A stretch of 64,000 bases of DNA from a bacterium (GCA_021788365.1 JAJYKS010000003.1:6283-70282); one strand, 5' to 3'. Shown: positions 7,223 through 60,852, numbered from the stretch's first letter. Notes: generated from the letters alone by a model not told the origin. Program-made: numbers and translations.

Positions 7223-7460
7223 TGTGGATAACTATGGGGAAAAGTCTGTGGATAGGTGAGTGGAAAGTGGTAGGAAAACTAACCCATGTTATGGGTAAAA
7301 GTGGAGAAGTTTGGGGTTATACACCACCCGCTAAGTTATCCCCAGTTTTATCCACCGCGTTTTCCCCCACTCCTACTCGACATGTTTTCCGGAAATCCAC
7401 CGCGCCTACTAGTACTACTACCTTAATTATCTATAATAGGGGGATCATAAAGGAGCCATT
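7223..7460. promoter_or_regulatory. dnaA-dnaN intergenic DnaA-box cluster (candidate oriC)
   Basis: The region holds TGTGGATAA (7224-7232), TGTGGATAG, TTATCCCCA and TTATCCACC. A canonical SD AAAGGAG precedes dnaN. Confidence 0.55.
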
Positions 7461-10542: not shown

Positions 10543-10544
10543 AT

Positions 10545-10672
10545 CCTATCAGTATACCAGCTAGTCGGCGAGTCGGCGGGCCGGCATGTCGGCTTGTCAG
10601 CGAGGCCGGAAAACCGATGCACCGATTTAACTGATTGGCTGACTAGCTGATTTGCTGATTTGCCGACTATCT
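10545..10672. repeat. Octamer-periodic (NNGTCGGC)n / (GCTGATTT)n intergenic element, one of at least five copies
   Basis: TAGTCGGC GAGTCGGC GGGCCGGC ATGTCGGC TTGTCAGC ... GCTGATTT GCTGATTT GCCGACTA. It is flanked on the gene side by CAGTATAcc (TATACT -10 on the coding strand) 8 nt before the VirB4 ATG. Confidence 0.5.
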
Positions 10673-11305: not shown

Positions 11306-11437
11306 ACGGACTCAGTATATCAGTAGGTCGGCAAGTCAGCGAATCGGTTGGTCGGTATGTCGGCTTGCCAGTAATCGCCGAAACCTGGCTTACAGGTTTA
11401 GCTGGTTAGCTGACCCGCCGGTTTGCTGGTGTGCCGA

Positions 11438-12475
11438 TTATTGTGCTCGGAGGAGGATGGGGGGGATGATGTCTCCTTTGGTTGTCAGCGATTGTGGGGC
11501 GAACTTGAGACCATCCTTTTCCACTTCAATGGCATAGGAGCCGTTTCCGAGAGGTGTGGTGGTAAAAAACTGTCCAAGGCCGTTGGTTTTCATGGCGCGG
11601 GCGGGGATCCCGTCTCCCATCACTACCTGAACAATGGCGTTTTCTACTAGGTGCCCCCCTTTGTCGACGACTATTCCCGTTATCACATTGGGGATTTGGG
11701 GCGCGGCGGGCAGCTTAATTGTTGTCAGGGGGGTAGACGCAACTTTTGGCGCGGTAGTGGGGCTTGTGGGGCGGGAGAAAACCACATCAACCGTTGGCGG
11801 AGGGCTTTGTGGGGTTTTTGTGGGTGCTGCTGCAACGGTGGGTGTTGGCGTCACGGGGATCGATATCGTACGTAACGGTGGCGCGGGCGGGGTCGCCGCC
11901 GGAGACGGAGCGTTGTTATCGAATACTATACTTTTTGCTTTTAGTTTGCGGATTGTTACTGCGGGCTTGGCGCTACTGGTTTCGACGATGGTAACTGGTG
12001 GAACGGCGGGGGAGATGTGTACTTTCTGAAATAGCGCGTCGACCTCGTGGACCTGCTTTGCTTCTTCTGTCGAGAGGTCGCTTGTTACCGTTTTTCGTAC
12101 GGGAAGCGTTGGTGCTTTGAGTGTTTTTACCGCCGTAGGAGTATCTACAAAAATGTGGGCGGCGAAGGTAAACATTTCAGGAATGGTATTTGTCTTTTTC
12201 CAAACGAAACGGGTGGGGCCATAGATGGCTTTAACAAAATTAAGTGCCCAGATGTCCAGTGGACGATCTTCGAGTGGAAAGAATGCAAAGGCTATTCCAC
12301 CAAAAAGCGAGATGAGTGCGAGCGGCCACTTGAATATAAAAATCAGATTGCTCGCATAGAAAAGGTAGGCGACGAGCATCCCGGCAGCTAGTTCCAAAAA
12401 TTGTTTGAGCGTCATGTCTCCCACAAGGCGGAACTGATATTGTGTAACGTTCTGAGGAATGGGGTGTTGCTGCAT
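11438..12475 (-). CDS. PrgI/VirB3-like membrane protein with a Pro/Thr-rich linker and a C-terminal beta-sandwich (carboxypeptidase-regulatory-like) domain
   Basis: The N-terminus FRLVGDMTLKQFLELAAGMLVAYLFY plus two TM helices resembles PrgI-family VirB3 analogues. A long PT-rich spacer precedes the GIVVDKGGHLVENAIVQV...GSYAIEVEKDGL fold. The likely start is the ATG at 12473-12475 (MQQHPIP; the ORF-track start at 12499 is a TTG), with a TATACT box 6 nt upstream. Confidence 0.5.
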   Translation of the reverse strand: MQQHPIPQNVTQYQFRLVGDMTLKQFLELAAGMLVAYLFYASNLIFIFKWPLALISLFGGIAFAFFPLEDRPLDIWALNFVKAIYGPTRFVWKKTNTIPEMFTFAAHIFVDTPTAVKTLKAPTLPVRKTVTSDLSTEEAKQVHEVDALFQKVHISPAVPPVTIVETSSAKPAVTIRKLKAKSIVFDNNAPSPAATPPAPPLRTISIPVTPTPTVAAAPTKTPQSPPPTVDVVFSRPTSPTTAPKVASTPLTTIKLPAAPQIPNVITGIVVDKGGHLVENAIVQVVMGDGIPARAMKTNGLGQFFTTTPLGNGSYAIEVEKDGLKFAPQSLTTKGDIIPPILLRAQ

Positions 12476-12508
12476 GGCTCTAGTATACAGGGTTAACAAA
12501 AGAGAACA

Positions 12509-13183
12509 CTATTGTTGTGCTGCCGGCGATTCTGGAGAGGGTGAGGGTAGGGGTGATGGTGTGGGCGTTGGCGAGGGAGCTACAACGGTGTAGGCGTGGG
12601 TTGCCGGGTCTATCCCATGAGACTGTACCCAGGATTTGATCTGTGAAATTGCAGTCGCTTGGTCGAGGGTGTCGCTTTTTAGATCAATTTCGAGCGTGAG
12701 CGGGGCGCTATAAACAACTCGGTAGAGCGCTGTTTCGTATGGCGTGAACTGGGAGAGCGGGTAGTTTTTGTCGAGGTCTGATTGCAAACCTTGAAGATAG
12801 CGTGGGTCGTTTTGTTCATGAGCGGTAGTAAAACTAATGGTTCCGACGATTTGTCCCTTCTCATTAATCGTAACAGTATAATCGCTGGCGACCCTGAGGT
12901 ATAGTTGGTGGTCAAGCTCGATGGTGTTGGCATCCTTTTGTTGAATACTCCATAATTCTTCAGGGACAGAGGTCGCTGTAACATCGCTTGCGACGATTGG
13001 TTGATTGAAGACAATGATAATCGGACCAAAAACACTTGCTTCAGTTGTATGATTCCCCGGGGAGGAAGTGATGATTGCTGGTAGCGATGGGGCGGGCTTG
13101 GTTTTGTTGGATAAGTAGATTAGAGAGACAATAAATGCTACTCCGATTGCAACTGCCAACACGATTTTTATTTTTTGCTTCAT
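12509..13183 (-). CDS. Membrane-anchored/secreted hypothetical protein with a C-terminal Pro/Ser/Thr tail
   Basis: 224 aa with an N-terminal TM/signal anchor (KIVLAVAIGVAFIVSLIYL) and a C-terminal PSPTPTPSPLPSPSP tail. Confidence 0.45.
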   Translation of the reverse strand: MKQKIKIVLAVAIGVAFIVSLIYLSNKTKPAPSLPAIITSSPGNHTTEASVFGPIIIVFNQPIVASDVTATSVPEELWSIQQKDANTIELDHQLYLRVASDYTVTINEKGQIVGTISFTTAHEQNDPRYLQGLQSDLDKNYPLSQFTPYETALYRVVYSAPLTLEIDLKSDTLDQATAISQIKSWVQSHGIDPATHAYTVVAPSPTPTPSPLPSPSPESPAAQQ

Positions 13184-13192
13184 TGTTTTATT

Positions 13193-15973: not shown

Positions 15974-16020
15974 AGCGCTATTCTAACAGTTGCAGGGCAT
16001 AAAATGGTATAATCTGGGGC
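15974..16020. promoter_or_regulatory. Divergent promoter region with two back-to-back leaderless-type extended -10 boxes
   Basis: Plus strand: TGGTATAAT, then 7 nt, then ATG (16021). Minus strand: TGTTAGAAT, then 6 nt, then ATG (15973). Neither has an SD. Confidence 0.5.
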
Positions 16021-19000
16021 ATGGCTATCCAGGAAAAATTGGGAGAAGGGTTCGAGGCTGCACAGCATTCTGGGTTTGGTGAGGCGGGTGCGGATGGCGT
16101 GGTAAAAGAAGCGTTAAAACAGATCAAAAGGGATAAAGGCCCGAGTAAACTAAGCCCTGATCAGACGAGAACATTGTTGCTTCTAGACATATTGCGTACG
16201 CTATCTGCCGACAAAGGACTGACGGGAATAAAGTCGACCCTTGATAGGCTGGAGACACAATTTTCTGTCGCGGCAATGGCCTCTTTTGGCCAGAAAGATA
16301 TTGATGTCATCGCTGAACAGCTGGAAAGACAAGGAAAGAAATTCCAAGCTGATGTTGGAGGTCCGGACAAGGATTTATTGAAAGATGTGGGTTTGCTTGT
16401 TAGGAGTTCGAGGTGGGCGGATGCGTCGGCATTGGTTAGGCGCGCGATTGTTGACGCTAACACGAGGCGTGAAATTGATTCAACACAAAATACTCGATTA
16501 GTGCAGTCTGTTGATGATTTTGATTCTGCAAACCTTGGGCGGATGCGATCTCGTATCGTCGGACTAGAAATGGAACAGGTGGCGAGGAAAGTTCCCGGTA
16601 CTGGTGAGATAGCTAATGAAATGGAACGAGCCGCTCGACTAGAGGTTGGTGTGGCCAGAAGGTATGTGGAAATACTGAGGGGAACTCCACAGCAAGATGA
16701 TATAGACCCCAGCCTAAAGATAGACACGGCTGTTATAGCGGAGGCCGACATTAATTCCTTTGTAAATGACTTACATAGTAGGAGTCCTAAAATAGCAATG
16801 GCAGATGAGCGAAGGCTACGCCATTTTAAACAGGAGGTTACCAGCAATTGGAGCGATTTAAATACGGGGATAGATTTGGATGAATGGTCTCGTGGAAGCG
16901 ATAGCGTTCACCAGGACAGACAGCGCTATATTAGAGAGGCATCTGCTGTGGCGAACCACGTTTTGTTTCTGAAGGCAAGGGGAGAGGTAATACTGTCTAC
17001 GAACGAGGAGGAATACTTGAGGGCGGTGCAAAAGGCCACATCGGCGGTGAAGCGGTCGTGGGTGGAGGAAGCTGTCCATGAGGGGGAAGCAGCTACTCCC
17101 ACAGATGAATTGACCCCAGATGAGGTGCGAGAGTTAAAGAAACAGGCCTCCAACATTGGTTTACTGGCAGAGATGGGTAGTGGACAAGGGTTTGCGGATT
17201 GGGCTAAGCGGCAAAGGACGCGCAACCCGAGAGGGAGTTGGAATTTAGACACAGAAAGTTCTGAGGGGGGGTTTAGCTTTCAGGAAAAAATAATGGAGTT
17301 GCGCGACGCCGGAATGTTGGAGATTGAAGACGGGCAGATAGTGTGGCTAAAGGGTCCGGACGAGTTCTTTGGAGTAATGTCAGAACTAGCGCGTGACGTG
17401 TCGGCGATAGTGCCAGAAGTAAACCAAATACCCTTTTCCAGGTCACCTAAAGCTATGTTGTATCAGGCTTTGATGGAATCGGCGGCGCATCCAGGGAGTC
17501 GGGGGGATCTGGCTTGGGCGAAGGATGCGGTATTCCGTCTATACACAATGGGATATGTAAAGGAGGCGTTGTGGAAAAAGGGTGGAGACGTAGAGTCATT
17601 TGCCGGCGCCGCACTCGCCCTGTTGGGTCAAGGAGAGGATGATACTGTTTATTCATCTTTGTTTAGATTTCACGAGACGGTAAGAGAGAGGGGATCTACG
17701 GGTGAGATAGGGGATGAAATAATAAAAATTGACCTTCGGGATATGCTAGATTTTTCCGAGCGATACTCAAGAGTGAGGGATGGAAAGCGAAGCTGGTTGA
17801 ACGCGATTTCTGCTGGAGAGCTTAATAGCGGCGTGCACGATGCTACAAGTAAGCCACAACGAATGGAATTTTTTTATGATTATATGAAATGGGTGCTGGA
17901 TAGACAGCTGGACATGGGAGAGATAGATGCAAATACACATACAAAGAGAATAGCGGCTATTGGTACGTCTGCTCATGACAGAAAACACGAAAATATCTTT
18001 GATGTATATGGTCAGTATTATACAAATTTAGTAAAGGTGATGCAGTCTATCCAGCTGAGGTATGGCGAGGTGGCCGTAAACCAAGTGATTAGCGGGGGTG
18101 GATTCGAGTTTTGTAATCCCCCTGGGGGTGAGGCTCCCTATAAGTATCATAAAAATACCGTATGGAAGTTTTGTGCGCGGTATGTCCCCAATAATAAATT
18201 TGCTGAGTTTTTGGACGCTTACGACGGTGGAGTAGATATGGCCATGGTATCGTCGATTGCGTATGCACGCAAGGAGACAGTGCCGCATTTTTGCTTAGAG
18301 AGTAGTGAGCCGGGCGCCAATCCGGGCGCCGACAAATATTTCTTTGAAACCGAGGCAAATTTGTCCAATCGAGCTAAGTGGGCTAAGCAGTGGGTCAATT
18401 TTTGGAAGCCGGCTATGTTCGACAGCGATGCACATCGAGATGGAAAGTATCGCGATACTGATGAAATTAGGATGATCGAAGAAACGCAGGAGATTGCTGA
18501 GAGACAATTGAATAGTTGGTCGGCCGCCGACTTAGGATTCATTGACCATGTTGATTATACAAAATTAAGTGAGGCGAGTGGCTACGACTTTGAGCAAATT
18601 TTCCAAAGGAAAAACATTACTGATCCGAAAGAAAAGTTTAAATATGTAATTAAGAATTATGGATATAAGTATTTTGAGTGGAATGGGTTTCGATCTAAGA
18701 GGGTGGGAGATTTTTACACGAAGTACTTGCCGAAGAATTATGCGGGGGTGTACGGGGCAGCTATCAAGTTGAGTATGAATGCAACAAATGACGAATCTGC
18801 GTTTGAAGCGTCGCAAAACATTGACGCGTTTAGTGGCTCGGAGAAATTTATGGAAGATATTGACGTTGTGATGGAAAAGATGAATAAGCGGACCTGGCTC
18901 GGTATAAGAAAACCTAAAACTAAAGGCGGCAAGGGGTGGTTGAACGTTGACCAAAAAGGAGAAAAGGCAAAGATTGATTTGGAGGGCGACTTTGAGTTGT

Positions 19001-19365
19001 CTCTGAAAGGGCTTTTGCCAGGAGCGCTTTCGCGTACTTCTCTGGCTGGCTACTATCTGAGACATCGTGATCCCGACTGGATGCGCCCCGTTTTGTGGGA
19101 GCAAGCTTACGAGAGGGGGCAGATGCGACCAGAAACGTTTGAAAAGAGGATGCGTGATTATAAGGGGGAGATGTATTTTGGCGCGGGAGTTGCTGGTACT
19201 GGATTCCGGTGGGGATATGTTCCGATTTTGACGCCCTTTACTTTGGCAAGGGGCTGGTTTGTTGACAAATTACACCTGGATGTAGACGACTTCTGGTGGA
19301 TTACCAGGAAGGCAAACAAGGATTTTTGGGAAGAATTTAAAAAAGTAATGAATATTAAAGTTTAA
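16021..19365 (+). CDS. Very large (1114 aa) hypothetical soluble protein, divergent from the T4SS-like cluster
   Basis: A long uninterrupted ORF with no TM segment, P-loop or other recognised motif. Confidence 0.55.
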   Translation: MAIQEKLGEGFEAAQHSGFGEAGADGVVKEALKQIKRDKGPSKLSPDQTRTLLLLDILRTLSADKGLTGIKSTLDRLETQFSVAAMASFGQKDIDVIAEQLERQGKKFQADVGGPDKDLLKDVGLLVRSSRWADASALVRRAIVDANTRREIDSTQNTRLVQSVDDFDSANLGRMRSRIVGLEMEQVARKVPGTGEIANEMERAARLEVGVARRYVEILRGTPQQDDIDPSLKIDTAVIAEADINSFVNDLHSRSPKIAMADERRLRHFKQEVTSNWSDLNTGIDLDEWSRGSDSVHQDRQRYIREASAVANHVLFLKARGEVILSTNEEEYLRAVQKATSAVKRSWVEEAVHEGEAATPTDELTPDEVRELKKQASNIGLLAEMGSGQGFADWAKRQRTRNPRGSWNLDTESSEGGFSFQEKIMELRDAGMLEIEDGQIVWLKGPDEFFGVMSELARDVSAIVPEVNQIPFSRSPKAMLYQALMESAAHPGSRGDLAWAKDAVFRLYTMGYVKEALWKKGGDVESFAGAALALLGQGEDDTVYSSLFRFHETVRERGSTGEIGDEIIKIDLRDMLDFSERYSRVRDGKRSWLNAISAGELNSGVHDATSKPQRMEFFYDYMKWVLDRQLDMGEIDANTHTKRIAAIGTSAHDRKHENIFDVYGQYYTNLVKVMQSIQLRYGEVAVNQVISGGGFEFCNPPGGEAPYKYHKNTVWKFCARYVPNNKFAEFLDAYDGGVDMAMVSSIAYARKETVPHFCLESSEPGANPGADKYFFETEANLSNRAKWAKQWVNFWKPAMFDSDAHRDGKYRDTDEIRMIEETQEIAERQLNSWSAADLGFIDHVDYTKLSEASGYDFEQIFQRKNITDPKEKFKYVIKNYGYKYFEWNGFRSKRVGDFYTKYLPKNYAGVYGAAIKLSMNATNDESAFEASQNIDAFSGSEKFMEDIDVVMEKMNKRTWLGIRKPKTKGGKGWLNVDQKGEKAKIDLEGDFELSLKGLLPGALSRTSLAGYYLRHRDPDWMRPVLWEQAYERGQMRPETFEKRMRDYKGEMYFGAGVAGTGFRWGYVPILTPFTLARGWFVDKLHLDVDDFWWITRKANKDFWEEFKKVMNIKV

Positions 19366-20912
19366 GTTTCTTCTTTTTTGATTTGGTTTTGGGCGGTGTT
19401 TTGCTGTGTTTTTGAGAGGTTTCCACCCAATAGCTTTGCTTGGTACTCCATGAGGTGTCGTTGACGGCCCTCTTCTCTGGCGGTGTTGATCCAGCTTGTC
19501 GGGTACTTCATTGCTAATCCATATCCACCGAGAGTGTTGCCGAATGCCTCGGCGGTGTATGGAGACTCCTTTACCTGTAGCCAATCTTGCGCCATCTTGA
19601 CCGCGGCTGGAGTCATCAAAAAGATAAAGAAACCAATGAGCGTCAGAACGTCGGAGTTGTAGAGGTTGGCGTCGGTTAACGTGAATGGCGGTAACCAGAT
19701 TTTATCGCGGTTTTGATAGAGTGCGGCCGATTGGTTAACCCCAAAGGGGTTTGCGTCGCGGGGATCGAGTGAGCCTAGGATTGTTTTGTCGGTGGGGTTG
19801 CCTACGAGGATGGCGCTAAAAATAAACATGGCGGCTGCAACCGGGAAGGGAATGAGGTAGCTGGCGGTTGTCTTTAGCCAAGTACTAAACGATTTGCTAC
19901 CAGGCATGGCGTTCATGAGTAGTTGGAGCGGGGCTGTTATGGTCTGTACGATGAGCATAACGTACGCTTTTACCAGTGCAAACATGAGCTTTAGCATGGC
20001 TATGGCGAAGGCGATCGCGACTATAAGATAACCTATCCCAAAGATACTGACAAACCCAACTACCGAGCCAGCAGCCCCTAGCACACCGGTGCCAAGTCCT
20101 GATAAAACGGCCCTGATAGAGGCGGCAACCGCTGAGATAATACTATTTCTTCCTGCAAAGATTACCGACCAAGCGGAATAGGACATAAAGCGGGTAATGA
20201 GCTTGGTGGGGTCGGAAATGATGCCCGCAGCCGCGACGAGGTACACCAGGAAATAGATAAGAAAATACATGAGGTCGATCATAAAGCCGACGATGGCGTA
20301 GCTAAAGGTGATGAGGATGAGGGTGATCAGAAGATTGGGGAGGGCGCTTTGAATGGTGACGATCGTTTGACCGCTAATCTTTGTTCGCAGCATGATCATA
20401 ATGCCGACAACCACAAACATGATGATATATAGAGAGTAGGCAACGTCACGAAATACTTTCCAGAATGGTAAGAATGGGGACATGGCCGTGTACCCCGTAC
20501 CTTGGGCGAACGCGTGCTGCACGGGGGAAAGGCCGGTGTTGCCTAGTAGGTCGGCGATGTATTCCTTGCTCGAGGGCATCATGGGGTCTGAATAGAGATA
20601 GGCGACAAAATTCCCGCTCTGAGGGACTAGGCCGGTAAGAACCTGATTGCCGCAGCCGTCTTGTAGTCCCACCACTTGTGTTGTAAGCGAAGCAATAATT
20701 GTCCCGGTGAGTCCTGGCCGCGTGGGATCGGATGGGTATGGTGTACTACACTTTGTTGAGGATGATGGCCTTCCCAGCATGTAGGGAACGAGACTGATGG
20801 ATTGCGAATTGAGACTATCTAGCTCGCTTGCCGCGTGAACCGGCTGAGCGACGAAAAATGTTGAAAAGAGTGCTACAAATAGTGGCAGGCAAAAATAAGC
20901 CAAGCGCTTCAT
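19362..20912 (-). CDS. VirB6/TrbL-like polytopic membrane protein with a signal peptide
   Basis: The likely start is MKRLAYFCLPLFVALFSTFFVAQPVHA (signal peptide; the ORF-track TTG start at 20963 is less likely). About 6-7 TM helices with long hydrophobic stretches (YLVYLVAAAGII..., IGYLIVAIAFAIAML). A TGcTAGAAT box lies 7 nt upstream of the ATG. Confidence 0.5.
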   Translation of the reverse strand: MKRLAYFCLPLFVALFSTFFVAQPVHAASELDSLNSQSISLVPYMLGRPSSSTKCSTPYPSDPTRPGLTGTIIASLTTQVVGLQDGCGNQVLTGLVPQSGNFVAYLYSDPMMPSSKEYIADLLGNTGLSPVQHAFAQGTGYTAMSPFLPFWKVFRDVAYSLYIIMFVVVGIMIMLRTKISGQTIVTIQSALPNLLITLILITFSYAIVGFMIDLMYFLIYFLVYLVAAAGIISDPTKLITRFMSYSAWSVIFAGRNSIISAVAASIRAVLSGLGTGVLGAAGSVVGFVSIFGIGYLIVAIAFAIAMLKLMFALVKAYVMLIVQTITAPLQLLMNAMPGSKSFSTWLKTTASYLIPFPVAAAMFIFSAILVGNPTDKTILGSLDPRDANPFGVNQSAALYQNRDKIWLPPFTLTDANLYNSDVLTLIGFFIFLMTPAAVKMAQDWLQVKESPYTAEAFGNTLGGYGLAMKYPTSWINTAREEGRQRHLMEYQAKLLGGNLSKTQQNTAQNQIKKEET

Positions 20913-20932
20913 ATAGTGAATTCTAGCACACC

Positions 20933-21475
20933 CTACGGGTGGAGTCCCAGCTTTTGTACCCAAGCGGAAGTGGTTGTTTGGATATAGGGGATGTCGCTAT
21001 ATATGAACGTGAGCTTGGTGGGGTCGATCCCAGCGTTTTTCATGAGCGTTAACCCCTCGCTGTAGCCATCTTTGAAAGCGCTGACGTTGGGATTTGTAAA
21101 TGGGGAACTGTCGGGGTTGGCGTAGGATAAGCCGTAGATCTCAAAATATACGGTGCTGCCCCCGCTTGTATCGGTGCTAAAAATGTCGATATCTACTTCT
21201 ATATTCGCCGACGTTTTATAGGCGCCAAGATGGATGGGGAGTTTGTCGCTTATCGTCGAAACGTAATCACCTCCTGACGTAGGTGAAGTGGGAAACGAGC
21301 TAGGCGAAACTGTACGCATGCTTGACGTTGTAGACCCGCCCGTATTAGAGGAGCTTGGAGACTTTGGTGAAAAAAATAAAATAAGTACAAAGATACCTAG
21401 CGTGGCACCTATAGCAATCCGGACATATTTATTTTTGAGTAGCTCTTGATACACAATCTTTACTTCGGTATTCAT
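20933..21475 (-). CDS. Single-pass membrane protein with a Ser/Thr-rich extracellular region
   Basis: 180 aa with the TM helix IAIGATLGIFVLILFF followed by an S/T-rich linker. Its start overlaps the stop of the upstream gene (coupled). Confidence 0.45.
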   Translation of the reverse strand: MNTEVKIVYQELLKNKYVRIAIGATLGIFVLILFFSPKSPSSSNTGGSTTSSMRTVSPSSFPTSPTSGGDYVSTISDKLPIHLGAYKTSANIEVDIDIFSTDTSGGSTVYFEIYGLSYANPDSSPFTNPNVSAFKDGYSEGLTLMKNAGIDPTKLTFIYSDIPYIQTTTSAWVQKLGLHP

Positions 21476-21478
21476 AGC

Positions 21479-24286
21479 TTAGAATCCTGGTAGCTTAATA
21501 ATGCTGCCTGCCACTATTCGTAGTAGTACTCCCGCAAAAATAAGGAAGAGAAGACCCGTAACCGCGGCGGTGAAAAGCTCACGACCCTTCTTTATCTTTT
21601 CCTGATCTCCACCCGCAGTCATAATCTGTACTGTGCCCACGAACATGACAATTAAGGCAATCGCGCCCGCAATGCCACCCGCAAAGGTGAGGAGCACTGT
21701 TGTGAGACTACTCCCTATAGGGATGCATCCAAGTGCGGTGTCAATTGCATTCTCGCCACAGCGACCGTGAGGGTTGATGGTCCCCCTTGGTGAAAGTGTG
21801 GGTGTCGGTGCGGCTGACGCGGCTGCGCTCGCGTTTTGACTGGTTGCGAGATTGTAAACGGCGAGTGCGACGGCAAAGGCACCGGGACGATCATTCCCGT
21901 AGGGGGTCGGCTGGCCGGCCGTGAGATCACCATGATAAAGCAAATACATGTCTGTGTGACGAGCGTCTAGCATGTTGGTGGCGTAGGGGTCGTCGTCGCC
22001 AATAAACTGTCGCGGACAGCCACTGAAGGGTATGGGGAAGGGGTATCCCAGCTGGCAGTTGCTGTTCCCCCCACCGTTGAAGTCTGAGATATCGCCAATA
22101 AGTTCTTGGGTGTTGCTATGCGGATGATTCAGGAGTGTTTTCCCTGCGTTTATGGCAGATGTTTCTAATCCGCCATCTCGACTTGCGGCCCCACCATTTT
22201 GTACAGAAACGGTAGTGGGATCCCCGCCGTCGGTGAATGCGGAGCTTCCCTCTTCGAAGTGGATGCCGGCGATTACTTCGCAAGGGATACCCGTTGCTTG
22301 TTCTGCGGCAGCGTACGCTGACTCGAGTTTGGGATTTAGCTTGCCGTCAACAAACATGGCGGAATTTTTGACGACGTTTGTAGCCTCTAGAAGCGGTGCT
22401 TGCCAGGAAGAATCTTTAATAAGCGCTGCAAATTTGGTTCCGTCACAAAGTCCTGCGGTAGTTGTCGCCTGCTGACACCCTATACGCGTACCAAGCGCGT
22501 AAGCCTCTATTGAGGTTGAGAGCGGGGCGGAGTAGTCAGGATCGCTACAGGTAAATAAGCCCACCGCCCGCTGGGAGTTGGCTATGCTCATAGGCTTCCC
22601 GGCATAGGGAAAAACTCCCTGGTCGTTTACCGTATTAGACATGTTGCTGTTGTGCTCTGCTGCTTGTGTGAGGGTCGGCTCTGTGTCGCGGGTGTTATAG
22701 ACCATTTGTTGGAGGTCGGCTAAACTCTGACCCATCAAGTCAGGAATACTAAGATAGTGGAACGTTACCATGTCTACCATGTCGGTGGGGCGGGGATAGA
22801 TGGCGTTTAGGAAGTCCTGGATTATGTTGGATGTTGTGTACGCTCCACCGCTTTCTTTGGTCACATCGGCTGGTTGTATTTTATAACAGTCACTATCCAT
22901 AGAATCTTGATAGTCATAAATAAATCCTAGTTTGTTGAGCGTAAGTGGATTGTAGTTGTCCGCAACATAATGAAACGTTACGGGCTTGGTCGCGTCTCCA
23001 CATTTTACGACGTTGTCGTGGAGTTCGACGTCTAATTTCGCGGTGATTTTTGATGGTATGCCGGCAGGTAGTGTGCTTAAGAAGTATCTTGCGAGCGGGT
23101 TTTTAACAACAATGTCTTGAAAGATCTTCATTGCTTGGTCGAGTGGAAATGTAGTAAAGAGGTCATCCATGGCGGCAGCCCATGCCTGGTGAACCGTGGG
23201 GTCTGTATAGAGCGCTTTTGACTTTGCAAAATAGGGGAATGGACACTTTAATCCTGGGCAGCACCAAGCCCATAGACAAACTGATTTGCGCGTGTATCCA
23301 CGCTCGTTTGATGGGGGATACATGGGTGCTTGGGATAGGTCGACTGCCCAAGTGGCTGTAGGGTTTTCGTAGTAGGTGTTACAAAGGTCTTTTTCCGCCG
23401 CGGATGTGTCGATATTTTCACCCCCGAGGGTTGTTAGAAATTGCTCGTGGGCGTAGGTAATCCCATATGCGTCGCCACCGACGTTGCCCGGTAGTTCGCG
23501 AGCTATTTCGATCAAGGTCTTGCCATTTGGAGTCTGGAAATTCCAATTCACCCAGCCTAGGGGCCACTCCCCCGTGCCGGCGAGTGTGTCCTTTGTAAAC
23601 GCAGCCTGCTTTACCACAATGGCCTGCCGAACGAGGCGGTCACACATTGTCAGGGATAGGTCCAACATGCCGTTTGTGATTACATTGTCAGAACTTGAGT
23701 TGTAATCGTAGCGATATGCCTCGTTTTGTAGTTTGGGGTAGACGAGTACATTTCCCAATGAATCGGTAGGCGTTGTCGACGATGTGGACGATGAGTCGGG
23801 GCCAGTAGGGTTTGAGAAGTCGGTGCTTTGGACGGCGTCGCTACTCGTGGGTATACCTGTGTATTTACATTTTCCTTCGATGCTTGCAGGATCGACAGGG
23901 ATAAGCTTTCCATTGGCGTCGTACTCCTTGGGGATAACTTTTACACATTGCCCATGACGCCCGCCCATGACGTCTGATCTGGCCGTGTTATCGGTATTGT
24001 TGGTACAAAGATCTACCGGTCCGGTACAGTCTGTCTCGCTCTGGCATGTTTTGGCGCGCTGATCGTGGCATATGTGGAGCGGGGGATAGCGTCGATTGCG
24101 ATCCTGATTTTCGAAGACGATGAGGTTTGTTGGTTTAATAAAACGGTAGAGGGGAAAGAAGCTTTTGTAGAACTCATCGGTTGTCGGTTCTGCCGGATCG
24201 ATTGCAAATATCTTGGTGGCGTGGAGAAGGGACACAATGAGAAGGAGTAGTGTTGTAGCTAGGATGCGAAACCGTATCGAGCGCAT
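21479..24286 (-). CDS. Large secreted Cys-rich protein with a C-terminal VirB2-like pilin domain (candidate pilus tip / adhesin subunit)
   Basis: The likely start is the signal peptide MRSIRFRILATTLLLLIVSLLHA. The C-terminal ~75 aa (GIAGAIALIVMFVGTVQIMTAGGDQEKIKKGRELFTAAVTGLLFLIFAGVLLRIVAG) is paralogous to the small pilins and to the C-terminus of the 33339-33941 protein. The start is coupled to the upstream pilin gene through a TGAtATG junction. Confidence 0.55.
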   Translation of the reverse strand: MRSIRFRILATTLLLLIVSLLHATKIFAIDPAEPTTDEFYKSFFPLYRFIKPTNLIVFENQDRNRRYPPLHICHDQRAKTCQSETDCTGPVDLCTNNTDNTARSDVMGGRHGQCVKVIPKEYDANGKLIPVDPASIEGKCKYTGIPTSSDAVQSTDFSNPTGPDSSSTSSTTPTDSLGNVLVYPKLQNEAYRYDYNSSSDNVITNGMLDLSLTMCDRLVRQAIVVKQAAFTKDTLAGTGEWPLGWVNWNFQTPNGKTLIEIARELPGNVGGDAYGITYAHEQFLTTLGGENIDTSAAEKDLCNTYYENPTATWAVDLSQAPMYPPSNERGYTRKSVCLWAWCCPGLKCPFPYFAKSKALYTDPTVHQAWAAAMDDLFTTFPLDQAMKIFQDIVVKNPLARYFLSTLPAGIPSKITAKLDVELHDNVVKCGDATKPVTFHYVADNYNPLTLNKLGFIYDYQDSMDSDCYKIQPADVTKESGGAYTTSNIIQDFLNAIYPRPTDMVDMVTFHYLSIPDLMGQSLADLQQMVYNTRDTEPTLTQAAEHNSNMSNTVNDQGVFPYAGKPMSIANSQRAVGLFTCSDPDYSAPLSTSIEAYALGTRIGCQQATTTAGLCDGTKFAALIKDSSWQAPLLEATNVVKNSAMFVDGKLNPKLESAYAAAEQATGIPCEVIAGIHFEEGSSAFTDGGDPTTVSVQNGGAASRDGGLETSAINAGKTLLNHPHSNTQELIGDISDFNGGGNSNCQLGYPFPIPFSGCPRQFIGDDDPYATNMLDARHTDMYLLYHGDLTAGQPTPYGNDRPGAFAVALAVYNLATSQNASAAASAAPTPTLSPRGTINPHGRCGENAIDTALGCIPIGSSLTTVLLTFAGGIAGAIALIVMFVGTVQIMTAGGDQEKIKKGRELFTAAVTGLLFLIFAGVLLRIVAGSIIKLPGF

Positions 24287-24287
24287 A

Positions 24288-24572
24288 TCAAAAACCAAAC
24301 TTAAACTGGGTAACCTGTACGCCGGTAATTGTTTGAATGGCGAGTAACACCAGCCATGAAATAATGGCAAGCGCAATCCCAACGACAGCGAGCGTGATAA
24401 TCTGTTTTCCCGCTTCGAGATTTTTTGTATCACTGCCGGCAGTTAGGATTTTAAATCCCCCCGAAAGAATCATTAGAAACGCGATGACTCCGATTAGGGG
24501 AATCGCTGCGGACAAGATGTTGCCAAAGTACGTGGGAAGGTCTGATAGTTGTGCTGCATCACCGACTGCCAT
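24288..24572 (-). CDS. VirB2/TrbC-like T4SS pilin paralogue 1
   Basis: 94 aa with two TM helices flanking the TAGSDTKNLEAGKQIITLAVVGIALAI motif. A TGCTATAAT box lies 6 nt before the ATG (leaderless). Confidence 0.65.
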   Translation of the reverse strand: MAVGDAAQLSDLPTYFGNILSAAIPLIGVIAFLMILSGGFKILTAGSDTKNLEAGKQIITLAVVGIALAIISWLVLLAIQTITGVQVTQFKFGF

Positions 24573-38659: not shown

Positions 38660-39100
38660 ATGGGTATGATTTTGAATAAAAATGCCAAGCGGGAGTACAG
38701 TATATCCGACACATTGGTGGCGGGGGTGGTGCTCACGGGCGCGGAGGTGAAGACGCTGCGCGAGGGGCGGGGAAGTCTGCGTGACGCCTACGCGCGATTC
38801 TTAAACGGTGAGCTGTACCTGGTGGGCGCCGACATACCGCAGTACAGCCACTATTCGGGGAAGGAATACGACGCGAAGCGGAGCCGGAAACTCCTTTTAA
38901 ACAGCCGCGAAATACTAAAATTGCAGCAACAATTGGAAGGCAAGAATCTGACACTCGTGCCTTTGAAATTGTTTTTCCAGGGACGATGGGTGAAGTGCGA
39001 GCTGGGGGTAGGACGGGGAAAGCGGGAATATGAGAAGCGGGAAGACTTGAAAAAGCGAGACGTAGAACGAGAGATTGCGAAGGCTATGCGGACCAACTAA
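38660..39100 (+). CDS. smpB: SsrA-binding protein SmpB
   Basis: LVAGVVLTGAEVKTLREGRGSLRDAYARFLNGELYLVGADIPQYS and the basic C-terminal tail are SmpB hallmarks. Confidence 0.9.
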   Translation: MGMILNKNAKREYSISDTLVAGVVLTGAEVKTLREGRGSLRDAYARFLNGELYLVGADIPQYSHYSGKEYDAKRSRKLLLNSREILKLQQQLEGKNLTLVPLKLFFQGRWVKCELGVGRGKREYEKREDLKKRDVEREIAKAMRTN

Positions 39101-39101
39101 A

Positions 39102-39127
39102 AATCCCGCAAAAGCGGGATTTTGCTG
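39102..39127. terminator. Bidirectional rho-independent terminator shared by smpB and the convergent candidate tmRNA
   Basis: AAAATCCCGC-AAAA-GCGGGATTTT is a perfect 10-bp-stem hairpin with T-runs on both strands. Confidence 0.7.
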
Positions 39128-39529
39128 TGGAGACGGAGGGCAGTGAGCCCTCGTCCGCGTGCTGCTACTAACATCATCTACATACGTAGTTCATTTTATT
39201 TTTAACCTCATGCTGTCCCGGGAATGAACGAACCAAAATAGCAAGAGGGTTGTCGATTGATTTGGGCCAGAGTGACAAGACCTGGCTTACGGCCTGTGTC
39301 TGTTTCCACCCAACTACCGCGCCACAAGCGACTTGGTAGTGAATGCCGTTAGGCAAATGCCGGTACGAAACCAGCGTTGTCTGCGGGAGTAAAGAGACCT
39401 ACAAAGAAGTCTTTTACTGCAGTCAAAGGATTTTTGACAGTTATTTTTTGGCTCTTTTTTACGACTTCCTTAGCCAAAGTCGGTATGCAGATGTTAATGA
39501 GCGAGTACACGTCAATACAAGACGTCCCC
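39128..39529 (-). ncRNA. ssrA: Candidate tmRNA (SsrA), about 402 nt, CCA not encoded
   Basis: Minus-strand 5' GGGGACG pairs with 3' CGUCUCC, including G3:U70 (the Ala identity element), followed by discriminator A. The 3' tRNA-like domain GGAC-GAGGG-CUCACUG-CCCUC-CGUCUCCA parallels E. coli GGAC-GCGGG-UUCAACU-CCCGC-CAGCUCCA. An internal frame GCA GAC AAC GCT GGT TTC GTA CCG GCA TTT GCC TAA encodes the tag ADNAGFVPAFA* (39349-39384). The upstream promoter is TGGTACCAT. Confidence 0.55.
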
Positions 39530-39597
39530 AATGCACGAATGGTACCATACATCAGGCAATTTGTCCAGTTCCTACGATCTGTACTATGCTATAGACA

Positions 39598-40286
39598 TGA
39601 GCTTTGTTGATTGGATATATCCGAAGGTATGCGCGGGATGTGAAAAGGAGGGGGAGTATATATGCGATGAATGTCGGGGGAAACTAAACCCACCAGTGTC
39701 GATTTGTCCGGAGTGCAACCGACCGAGTATAGACGGATGGGTACATGCACGTTGTCAAAGGCGGTATGGAATAGACAGGCTTATCGTGGGATTACCGTAC
39801 CACGGGGCGGTGCAGAAGTGCCTCAAAAACGTCAAATATAAGAGCAGCTGGGAAGTGATCAACTTTTTGCATGAAGTTTGGGAACAAAAAGCCGAATTCA
39901 TGATTCATGATTTACGATCCATGAATATAAATGCCTTGGTTACGGCGGTACCGATGTGGGGAATGAAAGAACGGAAACGGGGATTCAATCAAGCCGAGCG
40001 ACTGGGGAAATTAATAGCGAGCGAGATGGGGCTTCCGTATTTGGACGTTTTGGAAAGGGTGAGAGATACCAGGGCGATGTGGGGACTCGACCACAAACAA
40101 AGGATACAGAATGTGGTAGGGGCGTTTTCGCTTAATTCTCAGTTTTCAGTTCTCAATTTCCAAAAAATAAAACTGGTTTTGTTGGTGGATGATGTGTGGA
40201 CGACGGGGGCTACAATGCGGATGTGCGCGGGTGTTTTGATACGGGGTGGTGCTAAAAAAGTTTGGGGAATCGCATTATCGCGGTAA
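39598..40286 (+). CDS. comFC: ComF-like competence protein (phosphoribosyltransferase domain); contains an in-frame heptamer-repeat insertion
   Basis: N-terminal CAGC...CDEC...CPEC zinc-finger-like Cys pairs and a C-terminal PRTase motif LVDDVWTTGAT. The peptide NSQFSVLNFQK (40134-40168) is encoded by the heptamer element. Confidence 0.65.
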
Positions 40287-44424: not shown

Positions 44425-44586
44425 GGATTTAGTATAGACAATTCTGATGGTCGCCTACATCAGGATTACGGCGAACTAAAGCGGATTTATCTCGCTGAAA
44501 CCTCGCCCTAGGGGATATGAAGAAATATATTCGTGGGAAATCTAAGTTGTAAGCCCGCCTTCGCTAAAGCTACGGCGAGGTGAAAG

Positions 44587-44670
44587 CGGAGACGGTGGGA
44601 GTCGAACCCACAGGACCCTTTTGGGGCCACGGTTTAGCGAACCGTCCGAGTACCGTTGTCGCACGTCTCC
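44587..44670 (-). tRNA. Class II tRNA with a long variable arm, anticodon GCU (tRNA-Ser)
   Basis: Minus-strand read GGAGACG..ACGGT-UCGCUAA-ACCGU-[16-nt variable arm]-GUGGGUUCGACUCCCAC-CGUCUCC-G. T-loop GTTCGAC. CCA is not encoded. Loop position 33 is C, which is unusual. Confidence 0.65.
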
Positions 44671-44694
44671 AACGAAGAAATTATATCAGGGAGG

Positions 44695-44777
44695 CGGAGG
44701 AGGCGGGACTCGAACCCACGAGTGCTTTCGCACGGAGGTTTAGTAAACCTCTGCCGTAGCCGCTGGGCCACTCCTCC
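44695..44777 (-). tRNA. Class II tRNA (long variable arm); anticodon loop UUACUAA, identity unresolved
   Basis: Acceptor GGAGGAG/CTCCTCC, T-arm GTGGGTTCGAGTCCCGC, 3-bp D-stem, 16-nt variable arm. By hand the anticodon reads ACU, which is atypical. Confidence 0.55.
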
Positions 44778-57684: not shown

Positions 57685-58050
57685 ATGGATATCTACCGCG
57701 AAGAAGTACTCGACCACTACAAAACTCCGCGAAATCAGGGGAAGCTTGTGGGGGATGATGTGCTCACTGCGAGTGGGGCAAATTCATCTTGTGGGGATAG
57801 CATTAAAGTTTACTTAAGAGTGACAGAGGGAAAAATAGACGAGGTGCGGTGGGAGGGGAGTGGGTGCGCGATAAGTACCGCGGCAGCGTCAAAGCTGTCG
57901 CAGTATTTGCAGGGAAAAACAGTGAAAGCGCTCACGAAAATGAGCGAAGACGAGCTGACGAGAGAGGCAATCGGCCTGAAAGTAAACCCAGGAAGGCTCA
58001 AGTGTTTGATGCTACCGGCGACGGTTGTACGGAAGCTTTTGGGAAATTGA
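57685..58050 (+). CDS. sufU: SufU/IscU-like sulfur acceptor
   Basis: YKTPRNQGKL...SCGDSIKVYL...GSGCAISTAAAS carries the three conserved Cys. Confidence 0.8.
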   Translation: MDIYREEVLDHYKTPRNQGKLVGDDVLTASGANSSCGDSIKVYLRVTEGKIDEVRWEGSGCAISTAAASKLSQYLQGKTVKALTKMSEDELTREAIGLKVNPGRLKCLMLPATVVRKLLGN

Positions 58051-59104
58051 GGTTGGGAAGGCGATCGATGGTGGCGGGGTTGGCAAAATCACCGCGGAGA
58101 TATTGATGGTAGGCTGCGACACCAATCATGGCAGCGTTGTCGGTGAAGAGTTTTTTGGTATAGGGGATGAATGTCGGTATCCCACATTCTTTGGCGACCG
58201 CGCGAGTGAGGGTGCGGAGCGCAACGTTGCTGACGACACCACCGCCTAGGAGAATCATTTCGGGTGAGTAGAGGTCTATCGCTCGGCGGAAGCGCTTCAT
58301 AAGATGTTTGAATACAGCTACCTGGAAGCTCGCTGCGAAGTCGGCGACGAACTCCTTAGTTAACTCTGGCTTTTCCCGTTCTAGGAAGTAGCGCACTTGG
58401 GTTTTTAAGCCGGAGAAACTAAAGTTTAGATCTTTCCGCGTCGTCATGGGTTCGGGGAGGTGATATTTTGGCGTGCCGACTTTGGCGAGCTCTGCCACGA
58501 TGGGGCCACCGGGATAGCCAAGCTGCAGCATGCGCCCGACTTTGTCATAGGCCTCACCGGCGGCGTCGTCCAGCGTCTCACCTATAAGTTCGTAATCACC
58601 GATACCTCGCATTAAAACGAGCTCTGTGTGACCGCCGGAAATGAGAAATCCTAAAGCAGGATAGGTTGCATACCTGGTACGTGATCTGGTGATTTTGGTG
58701 TTAGGAGTTGCAAAACTACTTAACAGATGGCCCTCCATGTGGTTGGCGGCGATAAGGGGGAGCGACCATTTCTCTGCCAATTCTTTAGCATACGCGATAC
58801 CCTGCTCTAGAGAGGGGGCGAGGCCGGGACCAACCGTTACTGCTATCGCAGTAACGCAATTTTCATTTTTCAGTTTACAATTTTCAAATTTGAACCCTGC
58901 TTTTCGCATGGCGAGGTCGACAACTTTTGGCAACCACTCGTGGTGCAAACGACGTGCGATGTCGGGGACGGTGCCACCCCACTCGGCATGATAGCGGGTT
59001 TGGGAGGAGACGACACTGCTTATGACGCGCGTGCCACGGGTGACGGCGGCGCACGTGTCGTCGAGACTCGTCTCGATAGATAAAATAGTTGGTTCTTTCG
59101 TCAT
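57998..59104 (-). CDS. tsaD: tRNA N6-adenosine threonylcarbamoyltransferase TsaD (Kae1/YgjD), with a 12-aa in-frame heptamer-repeat insertion
   Basis: ILSIETSLDDTCAAV, HMEGHLLSS, LISGGHTEL and GVVSNVALR motifs. The peptide KFENCKLKNENC (58858-58896) is encoded by the AATTTTC repeat and is absent from E. coli TsaD at that point. Confidence 0.85.
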   Translation of the reverse strand: MTKEPTILSIETSLDDTCAAVTRGTRVISSVVSSQTRYHAEWGGTVPDIARRLHHEWLPKVVDLAMRKAGFKFENCKLKNENCVTAIAVTVGPGLAPSLEQGIAYAKELAEKWSLPLIAANHMEGHLLSSFATPNTKITRSRTRYATYPALGFLISGGHTELVLMRGIGDYELIGETLDDAAGEAYDKVGRMLQLGYPGGPIVAELAKVGTPKYHLPEPMTTRKDLNFSFSGLKTQVRYFLEREKPELTKEFVADFAASFQVAVFKHLMKRFRRAIDLYSPEMILLGGGVVSNVALRTLTRAVAKECGIPTFIPYTKKLFTDNAAMIGVAAYHQYLRGDFANPATIDRLPNLNFPKASVQPSPVASNT

Positions 59105-59388: not shown

Positions 59389-59763
59389 ATGACTGATTGT
59401 ATTTTCTGCAAAATAGTGGCGGGGGAGATACCCAGCTATAAAATATATGAAGATGAGAAATATCTGGCTTTTTTGGATATTATGCCGTGGTGTGAGGGAC
59501 ACACGCTTGTAATCCCCAAGCAACATGTGCAGTGGGTGTGGGACTATGAAAATGTTGGCGAGTACTTTGAGGTGGTACGGAAAATTGCAAAACATTTAGG
59601 TAGAGTAAGTGGGGAGGAAGTGGTTAGGTCCAATATCGATGGCTGGGAAGTGCCCCATGCACATATTCACGTCAAACCGGGAAAGAATAACGGAATGAAG
59701 GGTGAGCAAATTGCTCCCGAAGAAATGGAGAAAATCCGCGCGAAGTTTACGATGCTGTCATGA
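59389..59763 (+). CDS. HIT-family hydrolase
   Basis: CIFCKIVAGEIPSYKIYEDEKYLAFLDI and HxHxH (HAHIHV). Confidence 0.75.
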   Translation: MTDCIFCKIVAGEIPSYKIYEDEKYLAFLDIMPWCEGHTLVIPKQHVQWVWDYENVGEYFEVVRKIAKHLGRVSGEEVVRSNIDGWEVPHAHIHVKPGKNNGMKGEQIAPEEMEKIRAKFTMLS

Positions 59764-60852
59764 CCACTCAGGTGTGGAGAAGCTGTAGGTAATTTTTCTG
59801 GTTTGGTCGTCTAATTCTTTGATATCGATCAAAAGAATGGGATAATCGTTTTTGTACTGCTCGAGTGTGCTCTTGGCTTTACCAGCCCATTCCATGGCGA
59901 TAATGTTTCCCGGCGCAAGAAGCGAGGAAAAGTGGAGGGTAGACTCCAGCTCGTCCATGTCTCCCAGTCGCCAAGTATCGATGTGATAGAAGACGCCGGC
60001 GTATTTGGGTAGTGTGTACGGATATTCATGAAGAAGTGTATACGTAGGAGAGGCAACGGTTTCGCTCACGCCGAGCGCTGTGGCTATCCCTTTACTAAAT
60101 TGGGTTTTACCGGCACCGAGCTCTCCTTGTAGGGCAATGATGAGTGGATACTTGTGAAGGAGATTTAAGTATTTGCGGGTGAGCTGACTGGCAAAGGCGA
60201 TGGTCTCTTTGGCAGAGTGGGTGGAGAGGCTGGGGGAGGACAGGGGAAGCGTAATTTCACCTTGGCGTAGCACCTCCGGAGAATTCAGGGTAGTGTCTAC
60301 CACGGTGCTGGTGGGACGCTCTACGAGTTTGCCCCCGTCGAGAAAAAGGCTGACCAGACCTTGCTTCTCCCCCGTCGTATATTTTTGCCAGTCGTCCAAA
60401 CTGTATGGCTCTTTTTTGCCGCTGGTGTTGGCGCTGGTTGCCGTCACGGGTTTGCCATAGACGCGAACGAGTTCGAGGGCAAACAAGTAATCGGGAATCC
60501 GAACTCCAAGCGTACCCTCCGCAGATTCTAGCCGTGCGTCGAGCTTGTGAAGGCTTTGGGAAATTACCGTCATCGGGCCGGGGAGGAAATTTTGGTATAG
60601 GTTGTCGGCCATGGCGTTTATCTCGACGTATTCTTTGGCCATCGTGCGGCTCTCGACAGCTATTGAAACCTGGCGGTGGCGGTCGCCTTTATACGCGAGG
60701 AGCCTAGTGACTGCTTCCGCGTTTGTTGCATCGGCGGCAATGCCATAGCACGTCTCCGTGGGGAAAATGACCAATTCTCCACGCCCTAGGACTTGGCAGG
60801 CAAGATGGATAGCATTTGAGTCTTTGGTATTTACAATCTGCATACGTGACAC
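59758..60852 (-). CDS. Fused TsaC (YrdC/Sua5, threonylcarbamoyl-AMP synthase) and TsaE (YjeE P-loop) protein
   Basis: The N-terminal half has the YrdC fold (ELVIFPTETCYGIAADA). The C-terminal half has the TsaE motifs LQGELGAGKTQFSKGIA, SPTYTLL and HIDTWRL. Confidence 0.65.
   Translation of the reverse strand: MSRMQIVNTKDSNAIHLACQVLGRGELVIFPTETCYGIAADATNAEAVTRLLAYKGDRHRQVSIAVESRTMAKEYVEINAMADNLYQNFLPGPMTVISQSLHKLDARLESAEGTLGVRIPDYLFALELVRVYGKPVTATSANTSGKKEPYSLDDWQKYTTGEKQGLVSLFLDGGKLVERPTSTVVDTTLNSPEVLRQGEITLPLSSPSLSTHSAKETIAFASQLTRKYLNLLHKYPLIIALQGELGAGKTQFSKGIATALGVSETVASPTYTLLHEYPYTLPKYAGVFYHIDTWRLGDMDELESTLHFSSLLAPGNIIAMEWAGKAKSTLEQYKNDYPILLIDIKELDDQTRKITYSFSTPEWS

Follow-up and report, generated by a model that had tools for sequence, protein, structure and literature searches.

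In the transfer-messenger RNA (tmRNA, SsrA) of Escherichia coli, the near-invariant nucleotide A86 serves as the ruler for resumed translation: the first codon lies four bases downstream, and this nucleotide is the main determinant of the reading frame (PMC2481249). The resume codon of Helicobacter pylori is GUA, and GUA and GUC are both functional in E. coli (PMC2862035). Mycoplasma pneumoniae has a tag of 27 amino acids, described as 'unusually long', which is read by Lon in a lineage without ClpXP (PMC8403727). In the tRNA-like domain, U54 and A58 are highly conserved among tmRNAs, with exceptions in the R. americana mitochondrion and in Caulobacter, and Burks et al. reported a potential sixth pair extending the T stem in the Dehalococcoides ethenogenes tmRNA (PMC1168896). 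We analyzed a 64,000-nucleotide stretch of bacterial DNA (GCA_021788365.1 JAJYKS010000003.1:6283-70282; hereafter, the window) and found that positions 39128..39529 (-) are a full-length gene for a one-piece tmRNA (ssrA), a new member of the Rfam family RF00023. The gene is ordinary and expected in kind, because tmRNA, the RNA for ribosome rescue, is universal in bacteria, and each of its unusual features has a precedent. The points of modest interest are a complementary pair 54:60 in the T-loop together with a single-G D-loop, long tags conserved at the peptide level, the inversion of ssrA relative to smpB, and the failure of ARAGORN to detect the gene.

The original prediction, made from the sequence alone, proposed a tmRNA gene convergent with smpB in the gap between smpB and comF, and named an Infernal search with Rfam models as a check. 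The covariance model of RF00023 matched positions 39125..39529 (-) over its entire length (model positions 1-374 of 374) with 97.1 bits (E = 1.2e-36), compared with a gathering score of 47 bits, and this was the single tmRNA match by Rfam in the window. The minus-strand RNA begins with 5' GGGGACG at 39529 and ends with GGAC-GAGGG-CUCACUG-CCCUC-CGUCUCC-A at 39128. The RNA gene therefore sits where it was proposed, convergent with an intact smpB, although the gap is 430 nt long and not ~500 nt. SmpB is the obligate protein partner of tmRNA, and its gene adjoins ssrA here; the encoded protein can be aligned with SmpBs of solved structure up to residue 144 of 146 (E = 1e-37).

A search for relatives of this SmpB placed the window in Microgenomates (candidate phyla radiation (CPR)/Patescibacteria), with the best match in GW2011_GWF2_46_18 (77% identity). 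A tmRNA was found beside smpB in 14 of the 18 related loci scanned, and the eight close relatives with sequence 3' of smpB all had one, convergent with that gene and scoring 80-115 bits with Rfam. Metagenome contigs were further scanned with an invariant 23-mer of the ssrA 5' half, a probe chosen so that neither the T-loop nor the tag was preselected, and this yielded 43 further loci. The comparison set, to which the clade counts below refer, comprised 31 distinct full-length clade tmRNAs from the window, genome loci and metagenome loci. On the strength of this comparison, we consider it highly probable that the gene is a functional ssrA of a Microgenomates (CPR) bacterium, encoding a one-piece tmRNA with four pseudoknots. 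In the literature available to us, nothing specific on peculiarities of CPR or Patescibacteria tmRNA was found. Several records of metagenome-assembled genomes with Microgenomates-type smpB/ssrA (L002, L004, L005, L006, L010, L029, L030 and L032) are titled 'uncultured Pseudomonadales' or 'uncultured Gammaproteobacteria', and these titles look like taxonomic mislabels.

The canonical helices were mapped onto the tmRNA of the window, and their pairs were scored over a MAFFT alignment of the 31 sequences (Table 1). Standard pairs were observed in 85.9% of cells, compared with 36-45% when the partners were slid by 1-3 columns; both-sided changes occurred at 37 pairs, and none of 500 shuffles scored as high. 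The acceptor stem with G3:U70, already read from the sequence in the original prediction, proved invariant at all seven pairs in 31/31 sequences, the GU at pair 3 included. The tRNA-like domain thus has its 7-bp acceptor stem, the G3:U70 alanine identity pair and a discriminator A. Between the two halves of this domain, all four pseudoknots (PK1 to PK4) could be placed, each with compensatory changes; such changes were found in PK1-S2, PK2-S1, PK2-S2, PK3-S1, PK4-S2 and the T stem, and helix 2 is also among the elements backed by the comparison. In PK1-S2, for example, one pair is GC in 16 sequences and UA in 14, and another is AU in 29 and GC in 2. For PK2, 88.4% (S1) and 97.7% (S2) of cells were paired, with six and four pairs changed on both sides, respectively.

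The MAFFT columns paired poorly at PK3-S2, which was misaligned, and at the outer PK4-S1 (11-50%). In an alignment-free check of each sequence, PK3-S2 was present with covariation (UUGUC/GACAA, CGCC/GGCG, UGAUC/GAUCA and others). The outer PK4-S1, 50% paired on MAFFT columns owing to a register problem, gave stems of 4-7 bp in individual sequences; the alignment-free search for PK4 often returned alternative helices, so that the register of PK4-S1 is approximate. The inner helix of PK4 was 96.8% paired, and PK4-S2 was paired in 84% of cells with four pairs changed on both sides. The covariation indicates a one-piece tmRNA of the standard kind, in which, of the four pseudoknots, PK1 lies 5' of the tag open reading frame (ORF) and PK2-PK4 lie 3' of it.

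With regard to the tag, comparison among the relatives suggests that translation most likely resumes at GUC (39438..39436) and that the tag is VKNPLTAVKDFFVGLFTPADNAGFVPAFA, encoded by 29 codons. In the window, AAAAAAUAACU stands directly after PK1 and is immediately followed by GUC, and the short ORF shows the expected properties, namely no start codon, a beginning 11-12 nt past PK1 and 4 nt past the conserved A, a UAA stop and a hydrophobic, Ala-containing end (...PAFA). When the resume codon was positioned across relatives by alignment column, the frame was open for 28-38 codons in 31/31 sequences and the stop was always UAA, while the other two frames had a median open length of 7-8 codons and reached at least 28 codons in 5/31 and 4/31. 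A88, U91 and G92 were invariant in 31/31, and an A at -4 was present in all six outgroup tmRNAs. The column of GUC holds GCA in L096 and GCU in the outgroup L037, behind the identical leader AAAAAAUAACU. The tag peptides align over their whole length with the pattern VNxΦxTA...KVxAFL...FGS/FAP...A[YF]xA, and clade tags end in A or V behind hydrophobic residues. Differences at codon positions 1, 2 and 3 numbered 2964, 2337 and 3725, respectively, and synonymous differences numbered 1798 in frame 0 compared with 1006 and 775 in the shifted frames. ARAGORN, once the window gene was detected, called the same 29-codon tag. Apart from this agreement, ARAGORN tag calls were not used as evidence, since relaxed calls were inconsistent across relatives (different frames or internal GCN codons).

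The tag had originally been read as a shorter message, GCA GAC AAC GCU GGU UUC GUA CCG GCA UUU GCC UAA (tmRNA positions 146-181; 39384..39349), in which resumption at GCA (39384..39382) would add the 11 residues ADNAGFVPAFA to the same tmRNA. GCA is the commonest resume codon, A-D-N resembles the A-N-D of E. coli, the C-terminal degron would be identical because this GCA is in frame with the same stop, and relaxed ARAGORN sometimes favours internal in-frame GCN codons in relatives. However, this GCA, which is codon 19 of the frame starting at GUC, was kept in 0/30 of the other clade sequences, and it lies ~65 nt past PK1, compared with 11-12 nt in characterised tmRNAs. It is preceded by CUCCC and so has no A at -4, the equivalent of A86 being the main frame determinant (PMC2481249). 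Moreover, the 18 codons upstream of it are open in 31/31 and show the excess of third-position and synonymous differences, which is unexpected for a non-coding spacer. Resumption at GCA is therefore improbable. Because GUC lies in the same frame, open to the same stop in all 31 sequences, ADNAGFVPAFA is probably not the full tag but its last 11 residues, the C-terminal third of the 29. The 29-residue tag would yield the tryptic peptides NPLTAVK and DFFVGLFTPADNAGFVPAFA and add ~3.1 kDa including Ala, as opposed to ~1.1 kDa.

Tags of 31-34 amino acids were also observed in other Microgenomates (L028, 3725..4131; L029, 3447..3883; L032, 3927..4368; L037, 1174..1580), which makes long tags a trait of a wider group than the clade of the window. 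A motif is common to several of them, for example ...ERDAILAQLG... in L029 and ...ERDSILAQLG... in L037.

The T-arm has a 5-bp stem, closed by G53-C61, with a 7-nt loop directly before the 3' acceptor strand, and stem pair 52:62 covaries (GC in 22, AU in 9). The loop departs from the canonical form: it reads C54 U55 C56 A57 C58 U59 G60, with U55, C56 and A57 retained and both U54 and A58 lost. Across the clade, U55, C56 and A57 were invariant, and the U54/A58 combination was absent in 24/31 sequences; the loops were CUCAUUG in 11, the canonical UUCAAUA in 7, CUCACUG as in the window in 6, GUCACAC in 4, and UUCAUUG, CUCAAUG and CUCACUA in one each. The loop ends C54 and G60 can form a sixth T-arm pair, leaving the 5-nt loop UCACU. 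Pair 54:60 was standard in 30/31 (C-G 18, U-A 7, G-C 4 and U-G 1; other 1), and position 58 varied together with it (U54/A58/A60 versus C54/Y58/G60). When mapped on a neighbour-joining tree computed with the T-arm excluded, 54:60 changed state ~8-10 times, so that the covariation was repeated and not inherited once. The outgroup L029 has a T-arm, UCCGCC-CCACA-GGCGGA, with the same six-pair geometry. The D-loop also lacks the usual GG, since UCUUGUAUUGAC has a lone G12, which is invariant in the clade. Both the canonical T-loop and the GG are conserved among tmRNAs without being strictly defining. One tentative interpretation is that the clade rebuilt the tmRNA elbow, with a Watson-Crick 54:60 pair (6-bp T stem, 5-nt loop) replacing the universal U54-A58 reverse-Hoogsteen T-loop and with a single-G D-loop, such that the canonical T-loop/D-loop lock and m5U54 would be dispensable for trans-translation, and that the long tags would be a lineage-specific degron for a non-ClpXP protease or have an extra function; we regard this combination as possible but doubtful.

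ARAGORN at its default setting reported no tmRNA in the window, only two tRNA-Ser genes, as the original prediction had anticipated for automated finders on account of the T-loop CUCACUG. This loop is indeed non-canonical, but it is not the sole cause of the miss: in silico, detection was restored by a UUCGAAU T-loop alone and equally by an E. coli D-loop alone. Neither changing GUC to GCA nor adding CCA restored ARAGORN detection. The miss is thus a threshold effect of the T-loop and D-loop deviations combined. ARAGORN likewise missed all eight close relatives with an Rfam-matched tmRNA, and relatives with the canonical UUCAAUA were also missed; when run on the 31 extracted sequences, it detected 2 at the default threshold and 30 at the relaxed one. 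Prokka and Bakta call tmRNA with ARAGORN, and many virus-host linkage studies run it on Patescibacteria. Because ARAGORN misses the gene, such genomes could be scored as being without ssrA; Infernal with Rfam finds it easily. Neither reading by eye nor ARAGORN at a relaxed setting gives a reliable tag here; the comparative A-ruler yields a consistent Val-start tag of 28-38 amino acids.

A scan for consensus promoters alone gave 2 promoter-like sites compared with 2.1 expected, i.e. not above chance, and called no terminators. The ssrA promoter in Table 1 is nevertheless credible, because its position relative to GGGGACG is conserved in 31/31 sequences, with a -35 element, a spacer of ~17 nt and an extended -10 (TGnTATAAT/TATATT/TACTAT) ending ~10 nt before the gene. 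In the window, the distance from the -10 to the mature 5' G is 9 nt, suggesting a leader of a few nucleotides that would be removed by RNase P. At the 3' end, the bases after the discriminator A read CAG, so that CCA is not encoded, as was originally noted. CCA is encoded in only 4/31 clade sequences, and 3' maturation therefore presumably needs a CCA-adding enzyme.

The hairpin between the two genes shares one base, the final one, with the smpB stop (39098..39100), and on its other side it stops 4 nt short of the tmRNA 3' end. Its folding energy was -18.6 kcal/mol on the minus strand and -19.1 kcal/mol on the plus strand (z ~ -5.2; 0/200 shuffles as stable). A rule-based terminator scan did not call it, possibly because the stem extends into the U-run. 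It is plausible that this hairpin is a putative terminator of both smpB and ssrA, as proposed originally, in that it is perfect, abuts both genes and is stable on both strands. It is, however, not conserved in relatives, which have unrelated 3' flanks; in L001, ~5 nt separate the smpB stop from the tmRNA end. A shared terminator is therefore a local feature rather than a clade-wide one.

These observations suggest the following course for the window gene. Transcription would start from the extended -10 promoter at 39567..39539, RNase P would trim the 5' end to G39529, and termination at the hairpin (39123..39100) would be followed by trimming of the 3' end back to A39128. CCA would be added enzymatically, as it is not encoded. 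Alanyl-tRNA synthetase would then charge the tmRNA with alanine, and SmpB would deliver it to stalled ribosomes. Translation would resume at GUC, four bases past the invariant A88, and the ribosome would append Ala followed by the 29-residue tag, stop at UAA and be released. The hydrophobic tag ending in ...AFA would be expected to mark the product for proteolysis, and, if the analogy with the long Mycoplasma tag holds, Lon instead of ClpXP may degrade it. None of ClpXP, Lon, FtsH, TrmA and TruB was among the surveyed window genes, no genome-wide search having been made.

Several points weigh against a functional ssrA with the 29-codon tag. All support for its function comes from sequence comparison, and 64 kb of the genome were seen, so that a second ssrA elsewhere is possible. 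The T-loop of the window is without U54 and A58 and its D-loop is without GG, and the function of the altered elbow is assumed from its conservation. As for the tag, the frame is open 5' of GUC too in the window (a 67-codon ORF, 39349..39552), and the GUC start depends on the A-ruler and on comparative position because no upstream in-frame stop is present there; in addition, ARAGORN at a relaxed threshold chooses different starts in different relatives. One might accordingly suppose that the gene is a decaying or non-functional relic, with rescue by another system or by another ssrA copy: both loops depart from the near-universal tmRNA consensus (PMC1168896), and reduced genomes sometimes lose ssrA, as in Carsonella (PMC4131195). 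This is very unlikely, since the 31 distinct sequences, which come from many environments, share this architecture and show compensatory changes, the acceptor stem and the A88/G92 context are invariant, the promoter is conserved, the tag frame is always open and an intact smpB remains adjacent. Pair 54:60, moreover, changes repeatedly yet stays complementary, which argues for purifying selection on structure and not for decay. It is scarcely credible that the interval holds a small protein gene in place of an RNA gene: it was originally said to have no plausible ORF, and ORFs of 60-83 amino acids do exist mechanically, but the 67-aa ORF (39349..39552 (-)) among them is the tag frame open upstream by chance in the window sequence alone, relatives have in-frame upstream stops at tmRNA positions 11, 62 or 69, and conservation tracks the RNA helices, the 5' half being near-invariant at the nucleotide level irrespective of codon position.

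We compared this functional tmRNA, as we read it, with those described previously. It resembles E. coli SsrA in the 7-bp acceptor stem with G3:U70, the lack of an anticodon arm, helix 2, PK1, the tag ORF, PK2-PK4 and the 5-bp T stem. Also similar are the A-rich leader of 10-11 nt with an A at -4 (AAAAAAUAGUC before GCA in E. coli, AAAAAAUAACU before GUC in the window), Asn as the second tag residue for the majority of the clade (the window has Lys), the Ala-rich hydrophobic tag C-terminus and the adjacent smpB. It differs from E. coli SsrA in the resume codon (GUC, Val, versus GCA), the number of codons (29 versus 10), the T-loop (CUCACUG, with no U54/A58, versus UUCAACU) and the D-loop (one G versus GG). 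Furthermore, CCA is not encoded in the window, and ssrA is convergent with smpB, whereas the two are co-oriented in E. coli. H. pylori SsrA likewise has a Val resume codon (GUA) followed by Asn (VN..., compared with mostly VNxΦxTA... in the clade), but its tag is much shorter; the loops of its tRNA-like domain are canonical.

The SsrA of Mycoplasma/Mesoplasma shares with this clade a genome-reduced lineage and a long tag (28-38 amino acids in the clade, more than in M. pneumoniae, and 31-34 in other Microgenomates), although the tag sequences are unrelated, and the link to Lon and ClpXP is experimental in Mycoplasma and an analogy here. The long conserved tags extend the link between long tags and genome reduction from Mycoplasma to CPR. 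The geometry of the sixth pair in helix 12 of the D. ethenogenes tmRNA is the same as that of 54:60 in the clade; in contrast to that single-sequence observation, 54:60 shows three Watson-Crick types and ~8-10 state changes among 31 sequences. Together with the single-G D-loop, this repeatedly compensated pair offers a natural experiment on the elbow features needed in trans-translation.

Table 1. Features of the ssrA locus and of the surrounding window (window coordinate = 39530 - tmRNA position; (.) denotes both strands)
Feature	Coordinates	Strand	Details
Mature one-piece tmRNA (ssrA)	39128..39529	(-)	402 nt; RF00023 and 31-sequence structure; G1 = 39529, discriminator A402 = 39128
Acceptor stem	39129..39135, 39523..39529	(-)	5' strand GGGGACG, partner CGUCUCC; 7 bp including G3:U70
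D-loop analogue	39512..39522	(-)	UCUUGUAUUGA; single G (G12) versus usual GG; Rfam alignment, consensus GAucuGGaUUCGAC
PK1	39449..39482	(-)	S1 CGACUU/AAGUCG, S2 UGGCU/AGCCA; paired cells 98.9% (S1), 100% (S2)
Frame-setting leader, PK1 to resume codon	39439..39448	(-)	AAAAAUAACU; A88 (39442) = E. coli A86 equivalent, 4 nt before resume codon
Tag frame (most likely)	39349..39438	(-)	Resume GUC 39438..39436 (tmRNA 92-94); 29 codons; stop UAA 39351..39349
PK2	39292..39345	(-)	S1 185-194 with 213-223; S2 GCUUGUG (201-207) with CACAGGC (232-238)
PK3	39250..39286	(-)	S1 GCCAGG/UCUGGC, S2 UUGUC/GACAA; both-sided change in all 6 S1 pairs
PK4	39189..39248	(-)	S1 282-290 with 316-324; inner helix 296-298 with 308-310; S2 GUUCAUU (301-307) with AAUGAAC (335-341)
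T-arm	39136..39152	(-)	Stem GAGGG/CCCUC, 100% paired; 7-nt loop CUCACUG (39147..39141)
ssrA promoter (predicted)	39539..39567	(-)	-35 TGGACA 39567..39562; 17-nt spacer; extended -10 TG 39547..39546 and TACCAT 39544..39539
Candidate bidirectional terminator	39100..39123	(.)	Perfect 10-bp hairpin AAAATCCCGC-AAAA-GCGGGATTTT; 4-nt loop; A-tract/U-tract flanks on both strands (AAAA/UUUU)
smpB	38660..39100	(+)	146 aa, full length including C-terminal tail; Pfam SmpB E = 1.7e-48, residues 4-144, profile 2-142 of 143
comF-like ORF	39531..40286	(+)	Double zinc ribbon typical of ComF-type proteins (Pfam)
dnaA, dnaN	5852..8555	(+)	Side by side
Type-IV-secretion-like cluster	8608..24433		
TraG/VirB4-type P-loop ATPase	8608..10542	(-)	In the cluster above
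PrgI-like protein	11441..12499	(-)	In the cluster above
TsaC-like/TsaE fusion ORF; TsaD	59761..60852; 58001..59104	(-)	Sua5/YciO/YrdC (TsaC-like) and TsaE domains
Tandem type-II tRNA-Ser genes	44693..44777; 44586..44670	(-)	

The genes ssrA and smpB converge in the whole clade of the window and in a Gottesmanbacteria locus (L028). Five Microgenomates at a greater distance (L011, L029, L030, L032 and L037) have ssrA co-oriented just 3' of smpB, which suggests that the convergent arrangement is a derived inversion. The spacer between the two genes ranges from ~6 nt to ~900 nt within the clade. On the other side, the comF-like ORF has its first ATG at 39531, 2 nt away from the 5' end of the tmRNA, and the ssrA promoter would then lie inside the first 12 codons of this ORF. 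Met23 (ATG 39597) is probably the true start, because the Pfam zinc-ribbon match begins at residue 26; such a start would leave a divergent intergenic region of 67 nt.

Elsewhere the window is ordinary chromosome, with dnaA and dnaN, Suf, TsaD, glycogen synthase, glycogen phosphorylase and a type-IV-secretion-like cluster. An ssrA fragment that was duplicated or carried by a mobile element was considered and rejected, as the gene is full length and its context is chromosomal (dnaA/dnaN and housekeeping genes). Because dnaA and dnaN are adjacent, the region of the chromosomal replication origin is probably included in the window. Beside the type-IV-secretion-like cluster, four large ORFs (533-1114 aa) had no Pfam match at E <= 1e-5. 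The single ORF near TsaD that joins TsaC-like and TsaE domains represents a fusion within the t6A tRNA-modification machinery.

One of the two tandem tRNA-Ser genes has the anticodon loop UUACUAA (anticodon ACU, A34) and stands beside a normal tRNA-Ser(GCU). To our knowledge, an A34 is unusual for bacterial tRNAs other than tRNA-Arg, and AGA would be misread if position 34 of tRNA-Ser(ACU) carried inosine. The tandem is also present in L003 (6117..6205 and 6006..6090), where tRNA-Ser(ACU) is kept and its anticodon stem has changed in a compensatory manner (GAGGU/ACCUC versus AUGGU/ACCAU).

The third-position excess within the ssrA tag frame extends 5' of the internal GCA as well.

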